Below are positions 60,687 to 64,000 of a stretch of DNA of 64,000 nt, piece by piece (position 1 is the first letter of the stretch; the number at the start of each line of letters is the position of its first letter). A program made the position numbers and the translations under genes. Under the pieces are notes generated by a model that was given only the letters and a program-made list of their open reading frames with translations, was not told the origin of the DNA and did not search any database. Source of the DNA: an uncultured Clostridium sp. (GTDB lineage: Bacteria > Bacillota > Clostridia > TANB77 > CAG-465); NCBI GenBank assembly GCA_947361355.1, contig CANAIR010000003.1:1467-65466 (forward strand), read 5' to 3'.

Positions 60687-60991
60687 GATATACCTCCTTT
60701 TTATAATTTAAAAATGATAACAACATAACTATAATTATATTATATCATTTTATATAAATTATGTCAATTAAATCAACAGATATACAATAATAATTGTGTA
60801 TTTAATTTTATAGAAATTTAAATTAGATTTTAATTTAGTAGAAGTAGTTATAATTATTATCTAATATATTTTATAATGATTTTACTATAAATATCAATAT
60901 TAGTTTTACAGTATAATAATGCTTGATGTATTGGTATAAAAATGTTATAATAAAAACACCTACTCTTAGGGAGAGAGGAGGTGCTTATTTA

Positions 60992-61066
60992 ATGGCTGAA
61001 CTAATTGTTGTACTATTTCTTATGTTGTTGATTACAATAGAATCAAATCGTAGAAATAGTAAATAG
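60992..61066 (+). CDS. 24-aa hydrophobic peptide, putative type I toxin (module A)
   Basis: MAELIVVLFLMLLITIESNRRNSK. GGAGG SD 11 nt upstream, pairable with the 5' CACCTACTCT (9 of 10 bp). Confidence 0.5.
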   Translation: MAELIVVLFLMLLITIESNRRNSK

Positions 61067-61134
61067 CTAAAATAGTAGTTAGTATGTTCTAGTGCTAACT
61101 ACTATTATTTTATGTAAAAAATATTTATATATAC

Positions 61135-61206
61135 AAAAAAGGAAGATAGTTCTAGATATCTTCCTACTTATTTAACTTTGAACTAATTATTGCAACATAT
61201 TGTTGT
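61135..61206 (-). ncRNA. predicted convergent antitoxin-like sRNA (module A)
   Basis: Runs from the consensus minus-strand promoter to the hairpin GGAAGATA/TATCTTCC (61141-64) followed by T6. It carries the complements of CTTATTTAA and GAACTAATT from the toxin translation initiation region. Confidence 0.5.
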
Positions 61207-61385
61207 ATTTATATTATAACATTTTTGGTTATAATTGTCAAATTTTTTTACTATAAAAAATATAACAATGATTAATTTATATACATATAAATAGTATTCT
61301 TATTAGTATAATTATACTTGATATACAAGTATAAAAATGTTATAATAAAAACACCTACTCTTTAGGTAGAAAGAGAGGTGTACTC

Positions 61386-61457
61386 ATGAGTGAAACCATT
61401 ATATTACTTATTCTATTAATAATTCTTATAAGAGAACTTAATAAAAAGAATAAGTAG
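61386..61457 (+). CDS. 23-aa hydrophobic peptide, putative type I toxin (module B)
   Basis: MSETIILLILLIILIRELNKKNK. The SD is AGAGGTG. A terminator lies at 61465-61499. Confidence 0.5.
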   Translation: MSETIILLILLIILIRELNKKNK

Positions 61458-61520
61458 CTTGAAAAGTAATAGAAGCGGTAACTTCTATTACTTATTTTAT
61501 GTAGAAAAATATATTATATA

Positions 61521-61591
61521 CAAAAAAGATAAGACAGCGGTAACCATCTTATCTTGTACTATGAGTTTTAACCATTATATAACAACGTTGT
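61521..61591 (-). ncRNA. predicted convergent antitoxin-like sRNA (module B)
   Basis: Promoter as described for the module. Hairpin AAGATAAGA/TCTTATCTT (61526-55) followed by a T-run. It carries the complements of GTACT-ATGAGT and AACCATTATAT from the toxin translation initiation region. Confidence 0.5.
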
Positions 61592-61637
61592 ATTTATATT
61601 ATAACATTTTTGGTTATACTTGTCAAACTTTTTATGC

Positions 61638-61666
61638 AAAAAATGTTGTAATAAAAAATACCTAGC
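61638..61666 (+). repeat. fragment of a sixth module (toxin -10 and 5' UTR only)
   Basis: AAAAATGTTGTAATAAAAAATACCTAGC is about 80% identical to AAAAATGTTATAATAAAAACACCTACTC. It is cut off next to the tRNA fragment. Confidence 0.45.
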
Positions 61667-61686
61667 ATAAGCTAAGTATCAATAAC

Positions 61687-61737
61687 TGGTGCCCCAGAAG
61701 CGATTCGAACGCCCGACCCACGGCTTAGAAGGCACTC
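61687..61737 (-). pseudogene. 3' fragment of a tRNA-Arg(TCT) gene (anticodon loop to CCA), att-site-like remnant
   Basis: The reverse complement reads ..CTTCTAA(anticodon loop)..GGGCG-TTCGAAT-CGCTT (T arm)-CTGGGGC-A-CCA. There is no matching 5' acceptor strand or D arm upstream. Confidence 0.65.
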
Positions 61738-61983
61738 ATTTAATATAAAAGTTCTATGTAAGCATTTTCAAAGACTTATGCTATATAATAAACAAATTAA
61801 TATATATAGTCCAATCATCTTAAATTATGATAATTATATCATAATAATTGTTATTATTCAATACTTTGTATGATAATTTTTCTATACATATAAATAATAT
61901 TAATTAGTACAATTATACTTGATGTATCAGTATAAAATGTTATAATAAAAACACCTACTCGGTAAGAGAGGAGGTGAGCTAAA

Positions 61984-62058
61984 TTGACCGACACAATAAT
62001 AATTCTATTTCTTATGCTTTTAATTATAATAGAGCTAAATAAAAGAAATAGAAAATAA
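61984..62058 (+). CDS. 24-aa hydrophobic peptide, putative type I toxin (module C, TTG start)
   Basis: (M)TDTIIILFLMLLIIIELNKRNRK. GGAGG SD 9 nt upstream. Terminator at 62064-62098. Confidence 0.45.
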   Translation: MTDTIIILFLMLLIIIELNKRNRK

Positions 62059-62120
62059 CACAAAGTAGTCTAGTTACAGCTAGACTACTATTATTTTATG
62101 CAAAATATTAATATATATAC

Positions 62121-62192
62121 AAAAAATGAGAAGATAGTTACAGCTATCTTCTCGAACTAAATTGACCGATTAATTGTACAACATCTTGTTGT
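62121..62192 (-). ncRNA. predicted convergent antitoxin-like sRNA (module C)
   Basis: Hairpin GAGAAGATAG/CTATCTTCTC (62128-53) followed by T6. It carries the complement of the 13-mer CTAAATTGACCGA, which spans the toxin start codon. Confidence 0.5.
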
Positions 62193-62273
62193 ATCTATAT
62201 TATAACACTATAATTAATAGATGTCAATATTTTTTGCATATATTTTTTGTTTCACATTATTGACAAATATACA

Positions 62274-62493
62274 TTGTTTGATAATTTTTCTATACATATA
62301 AATAATATTCTAATTAGCACAATTATACTTGATATATCAGTATAAAAATGTTATAATAAAAGCACCTACTCTGGTGTACTAAATTGACCGACACAATAAT
62401 AATTCTATTTCTTATGCTTTTAATTATAATAGAGCTAAATGAAATAAATAAAAAATAACACAAAGTAGTCTAGTTACAGCTAGACTACTATTA
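62274..62493. repeat. type I TA-like module D (truncated; antitoxin half replaced by an IS200-like remnant)
   Basis: Promoter TTGATA (62329-34), 17-nt spacer, TATAAT (62352-57). The ORF and terminator are present, the SD segment is deleted, and no sRNA hairpin or promoter follows. Confidence 0.65.
62384..62458 (+). pseudogene. toxin ORF copy without a Shine-Dalgarno (module D)
   Basis: (M)TDTIIILFLMLLIIIELNEINKK. Upstream is CTACTCTGGTGTACTAAATTG, lacking the AAGAGAGGAGGTGAG segment seen in module C. Confidence 0.5.
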
Positions 62494-62945
62494 TTATTAT
62501 TTGATCTGACATCATGTCTTCTTTTAACTGATTTTTTATATAACTTTCTATTGTTTTTTTATTTTTTCTTACTGTACTACAGTAATATCCTCTAGAACAG
62601 AAGACACGATTTCCATATTTATACTTTAAATTTTCATGTCTTTCAAATTTCTGCCTCTATTATTTCCACTTTTTTTACATAATTCTCTTATTATTAATCC
62701 TATTTCCGAATTTAATTCTCCATATATTTCTTTTCTTCTAAATTTTGATGCAAACACTATATTATACTTGCATTTCCATGTTGTATGTGCTAAACTATTA
62801 GTGTCGTTTTTCATACGACCACTCCTTTCTATGATTTTTGTTTCAGGCCGTCAAACCTATTTTTATTATATCATAGTAGGAGTTTTTTTTGATACCTTTT
62901 GCAAAACTATAAGTTCTTTTTCCCCCAGTAGAACTGTGGGTTTAT
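62493..62945 (-). mobile_element. IS200/IS605-family element remnant
   Basis: Contains the tnpA pieces, an SD-sequestering stem (62821-35 / 62868-81) and an imperfect end hairpin (CCCCCAGTAGAACTGTGGG, 62922-40). The boundaries are approximate. Confidence 0.55.
62497..62814 (-). pseudogene. tnpA: IS200-like tnpA with internal deletion and frameshift
   Basis: The N-terminus SLAHTTWKCKYNIVFASKFRRKEIYGEL..IIRELC and the C-terminus KYKYGNRVFCSRGYYCSTVRKNKKTIESYIKNQLKEDMMSDQ match Y1 transposase ends. The middle, including the HUH motif, is missing. Confidence 0.7.
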
Positions 62946-62953
62946 TTTTACGC

Positions 62954-62994
62954 AAAAAATAGCAAGGTGCGAATAAATAAAGTACGCACCTTGC
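62954..62994 (-). terminator. terminator of the 145-aa gene
   Basis: GCAAGGTGCG / CGCACCTTGC stem followed by a T-run on the minus strand. Confidence 0.75.
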
Positions 62995-62999
62995 GTTTA

Positions 63000-63437
63000 T
63001 TATTTCCATGGCTTTTTGAAAGGGTTGGTATTGTATGGAACTGGTTTTTCATCTGATATTTCTTTTGCTTCTGTTGCAAAAATTTCAATATAGTATATCG
63101 GATGAAAATATGGCATTTCATTAAATAATTTGACTTTTGTTATATCAAAATCTTTTTCGAAGTAATTATATTTAGCTTTCTCAAATTCCTTTCCATATAT
63201 TTTACCTTTCATATCTTTTTTTGCATCATGCCAGCCTATAACTGAGGTGTTATTTCTTACACCATAGTTAAAACCTAAATCTAAAAGCATATTTACCATT
63301 TCAACTGGCAGAATTTTTTTATAAGGATAAATATTTGGATAAATGACTGCATGTTCAAATCCTCGATTGGCGTAATACTGAATAATTTTAGTAATTTCAT
63401 AGCACATTTCTTTAAAAGTTGATAATTTTTTCTCCAT
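63000..63437 (-). CDS. hypothetical protein (145 aa)
   Basis: AAGGAG SD. No motif recognised. Confidence 0.5.
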   Translation of the reverse strand: MEKKLSTFKEMCYEITKIIQYYANRGFEHAVIYPNIYPYKKILPVEMVNMLLDLGFNYGVRNNTSVIGWHDAKKDMKGKIYGKEFEKAKYNYFEKDFDITKVKLFNEMPYFHPIYYIEIFATEAKEISDEKPVPYNTNPFKKPWK

Positions 63438-63570
63438 AGTATTCTCCTTTTACATAATAAAAAAATATTTTTACTTTTAAAAATATAACTATAATATATT
63501 ATACCACATTTTTAGTAAAAAGTAAATATTATGTAATCTTTTTGTGAATAATCTATGATAAAATCGCCTT

Positions 63571-63756
63571 ATGAAAATAATCAGTGATTACTTCACCCTA
63601 TGCCCGCGGCAGGTGTGGTATAATAGAGGTATGAGAAATTTTATGAATAAAAAAGAATTATTAAAAAAGATTATTAGTGAAGTTTGTGTTAATGGAAATA
63701 TTACTGTTAAATTTGCTAGCCAAAGATTAGGTTTTTCAGAAATTATATTAGTATAA
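63571..63756 (+). CDS. possible truncated HTH-protein fragment
   Basis: ..ITVKFASQRLGFSE resembles an HTH. The frame runs straight into module E sequence and stops. Confidence 0.25.
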   Translation: MKIISDYFTLCPRQVWYNRGMRNFMNKKELLKKIISEVCVNGNITVKFASQRLGFSEIILV

Positions 63757-64000
63757 AAATGTTATAATAAAAGCACCTACTCTGGTGTACTAAATTGACC
63801 GATACAATAATAATTCTATTTCTAATGCTTTTAATTATAATAGAGCTAAATGAAATAAATAAAAAAATAACACAAAATAGTCTAGTTACAGCTAGACTAC
63901 TATTATTTTATGCTATTTATTAATTTATATACAAACATAAGAAGATAGTTACAGCTATCTTCCCGAACTAAATTGACCGATTTATTGTACAACATCTTGT
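63749..64000. repeat. type I TA-like module E (decayed; continues past the window end)
   Basis: The -10 TATAAT (63763-68) is retained, but the -35 and the SD segment are missing. The sRNA hairpin (63941-62) and the 13-mer (63968-80) are present. Confidence 0.65.
63795..63923 (+). pseudogene. toxin ORF copy without SD, extended by a +1 A frameshift (module E)
   Basis: Same peptide core as module D, but the A-run is A7 instead of A6, which removes the stop and extends the frame to 42 codons through the terminator hairpin. Confidence 0.5.

Follow-up and report, generated by a model that had tools for sequence, protein, structure and literature searches.

A tandem array of probable type I toxin-antitoxin modules with two unit-specific RNA complementarities in an uncultured gut Clostridia lineage

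INTRODUCTION

Hallmarks of type I toxin-antitoxin loci include tandem duplication (PMC2887945) and small transmembrane peptides with charged C-termini (PMC6563280). In the par scheme of pAD1 described by Weaver (PMC7472228), promoters converge, the two RNAs first touch through complementary terminator loops, direct repeats cover the initiation site, and a 5′ stem-loop lies on the Shine-Dalgarno sequence (SD). Here, we analyzed a 64,000-nucleotide (nt) stretch of DNA from an uncultured Clostridium sp. (contig CANAIR010000003.1 of assembly GCA_947361355.1; hereafter, the window), which carries at 60871-64000 five copies of one repeat unit. Three of them, units A, B, and C, are probably modules of type I architecture, in which a small RNA (sRNA) read from the − strand would repress a small hydrophobic peptide encoded by an open reading frame (ORF) on the + strand.

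The Ibs toxins of Escherichia coli are hydrophobic, 18 to 19 amino acids (aa) long, and encoded in tandem in intergenic regions, and each Sib RNA discriminates its own target. The array resembles Ibs/Sib in its tandem copies and very short hydrophobic candidate toxins, but Sib lies directly opposite ibs and overlaps it fully, whereas the sRNA gene of the array lies downstream of the ORF and its product would pair via a displaced repeat; in addition, the host belongs to another phylum, and there is no sequence similarity. SprA1AS of Staphylococcus aureus overlaps the 3′ end of its toxin gene, and IstR-1 and Orz of E. coli are divergently transcribed. The array shares with SprA1/SprA1AS, TisB/IstR-1, and Zor/Orz a limited complementarity near the toxin ribosome-binding site, outside the gene overlap, and we know of no description of matched apexes of two separate terminators for SprA1AS, IstR-1, or Orz. 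Closer to the host, the Clostridioides difficile modules CD2517.1-RCd8, CD0956.2-RCd10, and others encode toxins of 34 to 59 aa whose genes overlap those of the antitoxins (PMC6563280, PMC5961336). They have in common with the array a Clostridia host, toxins with a hydrophobic N-terminal and a Lys-rich C-terminal part, a convergent antisense RNA, and a location in mobile or accessory DNA; by description, their longer toxins and overlapping genes set them apart. More generally, the peptides of the array correspond to what is expected of type I toxins, i.e., hydrophobic proteins of less than 60 aa with a predicted transmembrane segment and a charged C-terminus (PMC6563280), and as in type I systems generally, the candidate antitoxin RNA has a computed complementarity to the toxin mRNA, with which it co-varies.

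RESULTS AND DISCUSSION

Units A, B, and C each match their own candidate sRNA at two sites

Five copies of one unit of ~375 nt (full length, ~370 to 380 nt) were delineated by a repeat search, MAFFT alignment, and an nhmmer profile of units A to C. The nhmmer E values of the five copies ranged from 6e-99 to 1e-45, and the profile detected no further copy in the remainder of the window. Units A (60871-61250), B (61265-61635), and C (61869-62239) are intact. The other two are decayed: unit D (62279-62495) is truncated at its 3′ side, and unit E (63745-63996 by nhmmer, with features up to 64000) is truncated at its 5′ side and cut by the window end. Five occurrences of the 23-nt core TGTTATAATAAAARCACCTACTC were counted where 0.00 were expected, and the 3.3-kb array region contains 16 terminator-like sites for 0.5 expected. 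A preliminary description of this DNA had proposed five modules built on a repeat of ~310 bp. The five copies stand, with boundaries that agree within ~15 nt, but the unit is longer than proposed and only A to C are intact, as D and E have no SD, the sRNA half is missing from D, and the ORF of E has a frameshift.

Around each start codon, the + strand sequence recurs in imperfect form within the sRNA gene of that unit. The mRNA-side and sRNA-gene-side copies of this direct repeat over the translation initiation region (TIR) are found at 60984-61010 and 61167-61192 in A, 61380-61407 and 61556-61583 in B, 61976-61991 and 62154-62169 in C, and 63789-63803 and 63967-63981 in E; in A, the mRNA-side copy spans the ATG and by complementarity would be the target of the sRNA. 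The sRNA is read from the opposite strand, and its body is therefore complementary to an mRNA stretch that begins just past the SD and reaches into the first codons. The energies calculated for duplexes between each sRNA body and the first 70 nt of each mRNA were −31.3 (A:A; about −29 to −31), −27.0 (B:B), and −25.0 (C:C) kcal/mol for the cognate pairs. By these energies, the array is composed of three predicted specificity groups, A, B, and C/D/E, and duplexes between different groups reached only −5.5 to −19.7 kcal/mol. Cognate pairing had z scores of −4.4 to −5.8, and none of 1,000 dinucleotide shuffles of each body attained the observed value.

A second complementarity involves the terminators. 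In each unit, the mRNA and the sRNA have distinct terminator hairpins, with an AT-rich spacer of 33 to 38 nt between them. The outer stems fall into two types conserved among units, with AGTAGT...ACTACT in the mRNA hairpin and GAAGATA...TATCTTC in that of the sRNA. Within a unit, both hairpins carry the same + strand word at the apex (A, GTTCTAG; B, AGCGGTAAC; C and E, TAGTTACAGCTA), which makes the two RNA loops complementary over 7, 9, and 12 nt in A, B, and C, respectively, the contact being expressed as shared words with only three distinct rows. Across specificity groups, the apex words have at most 6 nt in common. In the transcripts, the apexes read GUUCUAG (mRNA terminator, 61071-61106) and CUAGAAC (sRNA terminator, 61140-61165) in A, AGCGGUAAC (61464-61493) and GUUACCGCU (61526-61555) in B, and UAGUUACAGCUA (62064-62089) and UAGCUGUAACUA (62128-62153) in C.

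The pattern of divergence between units sets these interacting segments apart. Promoters are 74 to 97% identical between units and the inter-terminator spacer 76 to 82%, whereas identity is 43 to 61% in the TIR repeat, 31 to 46% in the sRNA body, and 36 to 70% in the terminators. The segments proposed to interact are therefore those that diverge fastest between copies, yet they match within each copy, as co-evolving partners would, which argues strongly against chance or a passive repeat. At the level of sequence, the repeats, promoters, terminators, ORFs, and both complementarities with their co-variation are established.

A weaker observation is that the purine-rich SD region offers a possible further pairing site for the sRNA terminator, through its 3′ arm and U-tail (CUUCC-U6 and variants).

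Convergent promoters flank each intact unit

On the + strand, we identified the promoters TTGATG-17 in A (60923-60951; 10/12 consensus positions, with TG), TTGATA-17 in B (61318-61346), TTGATG-16 in C (61919-61946), and TTGATA-17 in D, each followed by TGnTATAAT, with 10 to 11 of 12 consensus positions matched in A to C. The near-consensus + strand promoter previously proposed for each intact unit is thus present, and D has one as well. Transcription is predicted to start near ACACCUACUC.

In the minimum free energy folds of A to C, computed with the whole mRNA or the 5′ untranslated region (5′UTR) alone, the 5′ end of the mRNA (CACCU.CUC) pairs with the SD (GAG.AGGUG) and the start-codon region is left unpaired; folding thus reproduced the 5′UTR-SD pairing of the preliminary description. 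The predicted hairpins lie at 60957-60983 in A (CACCU.CUCUU with the SD GAGAG.AGGUG; −12.3 kcal/mol), 61351-61381 in B, and 61952-61976 in C. The helix displays little covariation because its sequence is conserved across units.

On the − strand, units A (61213-61241), B (61598-61626), and C (62199-62227) have a perfect TTGACA-17-TGnTATAAT promoter (12/12) that faces the + strand promoter. They represent three of the eight perfect-consensus promoters of the whole window. The predicted sRNAs of ~74 nt (A, 61133-61206), ~73 nt (B, 61519-61591), and ~72 nt (C, 62121-62192) would consist of a 5′ hairpin of 5 to 6 bp, a single-stranded body of ~20 to 25 nt, and their own terminator hairpin followed by U6. 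As drawn, the two genes do not overlap, the sRNA gene being located 67 to 74 nt downstream of the toxin stop codon. The convergent − strand promoter with a terminator of its own was thus recovered in A to C, and it is stronger by consensus than its + strand counterpart.

The promoter regions also form 22-nt inverted repeats (AAAAATGTTATAATA.AAA.AC) at 60938-60959/61205-61226 in A and 61333-61354/61590-61611 in B, which are 91% complementary. Each of these repeats is made up of the promoter pair of its unit, so that one extended −10 module is common to the toxin and antitoxin promoters, in opposite orientations.

A T>C change in L008 to L010, three contigs of the Logan assembly collection, affects the final T of the −10 hexamer in the unit A toxin promoter (60951) and would probably lower the activity of that promoter.

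The ORFs code for short hydrophobic peptides with a basic tail

The ORF of unit A (60992-61066) codes for MAELIVVLFLMLLITIESNRRNSK (24 aa) and that of unit B (61386-61457) for MSETIILLILLIILIRELNKKNK (23 aa), both from an ATG, and the ORF of unit C (61984-62058) codes for MTDTIIILFLMLLIIIELNKRNRK (24 aa) from a TTG. These are the peptide sequences given previously. They are 35 to 63% identical in pairwise comparisons, and in spite of this divergence the frame, length, hydrophobic core, and basic tail are maintained. Each peptide has one acidic residue near the N-terminus, an aliphatic core of 12 to 13 residues with a mean Kyte-Doolittle value of 3.1 to 3.6, and a tail that follows the pattern E-x-N-[KR]-[KR]-N-x-K, with 3 to 4 Lys or Arg among the last 8 residues. 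Pro and Gly are absent from all peptides, and hence so is the PXXXG motif. The peptides are thus shorter than the 33-aa Fst and devoid of its conserved motif, as first described.

We applied a filter for type I toxins (SD within 16 nt, 18 to 40 aa, 9 or more hydrophobic residues in a row, and at least 2 Lys or Arg in the last eight residues) to both strands of 569 kb of DNA, i.e., the window and 505 kb from related genomes. Only the ORFs of units A, B, and C passed.

In a comparison of Logan contigs L006 and L008 to L010, a G>A change at 61050 that replaces Arg20 of peptide A with His (R20H) was found in one contig, indicating strain variation.

Decayed copies and a distant relative

Unit D (62279-62495, + strand) has kept its promoter (62329-62357), an ORF (62384-62458; MTDTIIILFLMLLIIIELNEINKK), and its mRNA terminator (62464-62489), but its SD is deleted. 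The unit ends right after this terminator, the sRNA half is missing, and the remnant of an IS200-type transposase gene comes next. The copy without an sRNA gene is thus also without an SD. In unit E (63745-64000, + strand), the −35 box is lost, the −10 box is at 63763-63768, the SD is deleted, and the ORF that starts at 63795 is frameshifted by one extra A, which lengthens it to 42 aa. Unit E has retained the mRNA terminator (63876-63901, +), the sRNA terminator (63939-63964, −), and the sRNA-side copy of the direct repeat. D and E are 98% identical over 123 nt, and a common 15-nt deletion takes out the SD; a short GCACC/GGUGU hairpin remains. A 30-nt fragment had also been put forward as the vestige of a sixth copy. 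This weak match (61639-61664, + strand), which comprises a −10 box and the start of a 5′UTR only, agrees at ~23 of 26 positions with one indel, so that a further unit is plausible, but the match is too short for proof.

We searched for relatives at the nucleotide level. An exact 23-mer of the −10/5′UTR region had no match in a set of one genome per GTDB species. A 20-mer matched nine loci in IMG/VR and the JGI/ENA metagenomes, eight of which were unrelated hairpins or chance matches and one a decayed relative (below). In IMG/VR, the 20-mer of the sRNA promoter found only unrelated strong phage promoters, and a gapped 5′UTR/SD pattern found nothing. Searches of plasmids and phages with A to C by blastn matched only an embedded tRNA-Arg fragment, and the nhmmer profile of the unit had no match in the syntenic loci of 29 related metagenome-assembled genomes (MAGs), 505 kb in total. 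With Rfam, no family reached its gathering score in the window, and the array region yielded at E values up to 10 only chance-level similarities to snoRNAs, miRNAs, and Y-RNA-like families.

At the protein level, the peptides matched no Pfam or NCBIfam toxin model at E values up to 10 and had no relevant match at the same limit among PDB chains, which we take to include the Fst and PepA1 entries. When A, B, and C were joined into one query against 5.8 billion proteins, the only match was an extended ORF over unit A, which is spurious. A 24-position profile of four peptides found only its own copy among 1.84 billion representatives, this very short query having little power. Full-text literature searches with the peptide strings returned only optical character recognition noise. 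The claim that no known family covers the peptides therefore held against Rfam, Pfam, NCBIfam, PDB, and both protein sets. ORFs of 24 codons are rarely called by gene callers, and absence from protein sets is thus weak evidence. Ibs, TisB, and ShoB were missed in this way, as stated in PMC2887945, which also mentions Ibs/Sib.

The one true relative, L021 (ERZ777011 NODE_39539, 95-365; JGI/ENA metagenomes), contains two copies of the unit, each with a damaged sRNA promoter and without the ORF and both terminators, which have been deleted. The deletion junction of copy 1 falls exactly in GTACT(C/T)ATG, the direct repeat shared by the TIR and the sRNA body. Recombination between the two repeat arms, with loss of what lay between them, is the simplest reading of this sequence.

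The copies of L021 lie ~190 nt from a putative tRNA-like sequence (~553-628, − strand).

A type I toxin-antitoxin model and its alternatives

The testable sequence-level predictions that follow from the type I toxin-antitoxin reading made in the preliminary description, i.e., promoters, an SD hairpin, a hydrophobic ORF with a basic tail, and unit-specific complementarity, the last of which had not been noticed there, were all borne out. From them we infer that both RNAs exist with the predicted ends and pair in vivo, and that the peptides are toxic. The + strand promoter would give rise to an mRNA of ~145 to 160 nt whose extreme 5′ end folds on the SD, which would limit translation and shield the 5′ end. 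This mRNA would encode the 23- to 24-residue peptide, which by analogy with other type I toxins may insert into the membrane and damage it. The stronger, perfect-consensus promoter of the − strand would yield an sRNA of ~73 nt. The two RNAs may first make contact by loop-loop pairing of their terminator apexes, after which the single-stranded body of the sRNA would zip onto 15 to 27 nt across the start codon, block ribosome entry, and perhaps trigger cleavage. Meanwhile, the 5′ hairpin would keep the SD closed, such that the peptide would be made only if the sRNA falls. As the pairing sequences differ by unit, the array would hold three specificity groups, A, B, and C/D/E.

This model shares much with par (Fst/RNA I-RNA II) of the Enterococcus faecalis plasmid pAD1 and its chromosomal relatives in the Fst/Ldr superfamily (PMC7472228). 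The promoters of A to C converge, the predicted sRNA is complementary to the toxin TIR through DNA direct repeats that are read in opposite directions, and a second, computed contact is made through complementary terminator loops. A predicted 5′ helix hides both the SD and the extreme 5′ end, although here a single helix does both, and the candidate toxin combines a hydrophobic helix with a charged C-terminal tail. Both systems occur in Firmicutes. However, par has one shared bidirectional terminator, whereas the units of the array have two hairpins with different stems (e.g., 61071-61106 and 61140-61165), and an overlap between their transcripts would require read-through. There is one interrupted repeat instead of DRa and DRb, the peptides have 23 to 24 aa and neither Pro nor Gly in contrast to the 33-aa Fst with its essential PXXXG(C) motif in the transmembrane domain, and no Fst model or Rfam antitoxin family was matched. 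The U-turn motif YUNR is found only in unit A (CUAG). The RNA I/RNA II layout of par first ascribed to the locus is thus a functional match that does not extend to the shared bidirectional terminator, to overlapping genes as drawn, or to PXXXG.

We considered whether the modules might nevertheless descend from Fst/par, as a miniaturized Fst that has lost PXXXG and a bidirectional terminator that has split in two, which we regard as unlikely. The tail of PepA1, a staphylococcal relative of Fst, is ..S-R-R-N-T-K, and the ..N-R-R-N-S-K of the array may recall it. The regulatory layout of convergent promoters, TIR repeats, terminator-loop complementarity, and SD hairpin is also that of par (PMC7472228). 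Nevertheless, the peptides are 9 to 10 residues shorter than Fst and have no Pro or Gly, the terminators are separate, and at E values up to 10 nothing was matched in Pfam, NCBIfam, PDB, or the Rfam antitoxin families. Since both the shared bidirectional terminator and PXXXG are absent and no curated model was matched, we do not file the modules as members of Fst/par. On balance, we lean toward an undescribed type I family, found in one uncultured gut Clostridia lineage, that would combine some of the shortest toxins with a nonoverlapping antitoxin, two displaced repeats, and at least three non-cross-reacting specificities.

The evidence for RNA-RNA control is silent on toxicity, and the peptides might instead be harmless small membrane proteins, e.g., regulators or stabilizers of a membrane complex, encoded by genes that are genuinely repressed by an sRNA. 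Their hydrophobic core of only 12 to 13 residues and their lack of homology to proven toxins fit with such a role. We nonetheless deem it improbable: self-contained cassettes that have a dedicated, tightly matched antisense RNA and an SD hairpin, are amplified in tandem, and often decay are what one expects of type I toxins and not of small housekeeping proteins (PMC2887945, PMC7472228), no partner gene is adjacent, and the copy that has lost its sRNA gene, D, has no SD either.

A noncoding, recombination-prone repeat resembling a miniature inverted-repeat transposable element (MITE), bounded by 60938-60959/61205-61226 and with promoters, hairpins, and ORFs as AT-rich by-products, is very hard to reconcile with the data and was dropped, since, although the 91% complementary inverted repeat of A and B, the mobile-element scars around the array (tRNA-Arg 3′ fragment and IS200 transposase remnant), and the L021 copies without an ORF would fit it, the inverted repeat consists of the two extended −10 regions with conservation that runs outward past both −35 boxes, there are no target-site duplications and no other copies in the window, and a passive repeat explains neither the two co-varying complementarities within units nor ORFs that stay open, SD-linked, and hydrophobic at 35 to 63% identity.

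Several observations weigh against the proposal that A to C are type I modules. The hydrophobic core is short for a membrane span, and the conservation of the ORF is that of three paralogues in one genome, with peptides that have no detectable relatives. The ends of both RNAs were placed using promoter and terminator consensus motifs, which are easily found in DNA of 25% GC. The U-tract of the mRNA terminator is weak and interrupted, and the 3′ ends and any overlap of the genes are predictions. Lastly, the preliminary description had listed homologous repeats without the ORF as evidence against the toxin-antitoxin proposal, and L021 corresponds to this to the letter. We interpret it as decay, since it reads as a case in which both partners have gone together, and the three diverged intact paralogues weigh more.

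Type I systems are numerous, lineage-restricted, and often tandem, and one more family will therefore not surprise the specialist. Tandem, decaying, lineage-restricted loci are expected of them, and no new class of biology is opened. The attractive part is the clean co-variation at two sites within one array. If our model is correct, it adds a type I family from poorly sampled, uncultured, low-GC gut Clostridia. The array would also represent a natural experiment, in which three adjacent paralogues have kept their promoters while recognition was recoded at two sites, making it suitable for studies of how sRNA-target specificity and insulation evolve between paralogues. It would further indicate that a par-type kiss between terminators, followed by zipping at the start codon, can be built without gene overlap.

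The array lies in a lineage-specific segment

The window is chromosomal DNA of a spore-forming Firmicute with 25% GC and carries genes for GroEL, TopA, PFL, RecN, YpeB, PcrA, Pth, L21, and L27. The nearest species-level genomes are MAGs of uncultured Clostridia from mouse, rabbit, sheep, and human gut, whose Pth proteins are at most 70% identical. The order VirD4-like protein/pth/rplU/rpmA is maintained in 22 related MAGs, and in ~10 of them a β-CASP hydrolase gene comes next. Neither the repeat unit nor its neighbors, i.e., the IS200 remnant and the ORFs of 169, 145, and 61 aa, were found in the syntenic loci of related MAGs. As the flanking genes are conserved while the array and the neighboring ORFs are absent from related MAGs, the array lies in a lineage-specific segment that immediately follows the conserved genes.

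The same organism was found in at least 36 blocks of the Logan collection. Ten Logan contigs (L004 to L013) break inside unit A, at 60963-60967, 61114, or 61231, and all contigs retrieved by exact-protein look-ups for sequence past 64000 were short and likewise ended within the array. Such breaks are typical of repeats in short-read assemblies. The window end is most likely the end of its contig.

Two remnants mark past mobile-element activity in the array region. Between B and C lies the 3′ half of a tRNA-Arg gene (61683-61733, − strand), followed by a hairpin and T-run (61680-61657), for which blastn matched phage and plasmid tRNA-Arg genes; ARAGORN detected no whole tRNA in the window. This fragment looks like the attachment-site scar of an integrative element. 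Directly after D, a 62-aa ORF (62626-62814, − strand) matches Pfam Y1_Tnp (E = 6e-5) and is the N-terminal remnant of a Y1 transposase of the IS200 type.

Three further ORFs flank the array, coding for proteins of 169 aa (60177-60686, − strand), 145 aa (63000-63437, − strand), and 61 aa (63571-63756, + strand), none of which was matched in Pfam, NCBIfam, or PHROGs. A perfect-consensus promoter of its own (60767-60739) belongs to the 169-aa gene. The 61-aa ORF, which extends into the 5′ edge of unit E, had a marginal PADLOC match to Cas4b (E = 0.0075).

Farther upstream, an 856-aa protein (54467-57037, − strand) with weak VirD4/TraG coupling-protein domains was considered as a marker of a conjugative element. 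We rejected this possibility: the gene is found next to pth in the 22 related MAGs, with 63 to 76% identity of its product, and its conservation and synteny make it a core gene of the lineage rather than part of a conjugative element. Directly after rpmA, a gene at 58485-59957 (− strand) codes for a 490-aa hydrolase with MBL, β-CASP, and RMMBL domains, which matched PHROG 36352 (E = 1.5e-45). Its best NCBIfam similarities, well below the cutoff, were to archaeal aCPSF1 and the type VII CRISPR protein Cas14, and its syntenic counterparts in the ~10 relatives are 31 to 41% identical.

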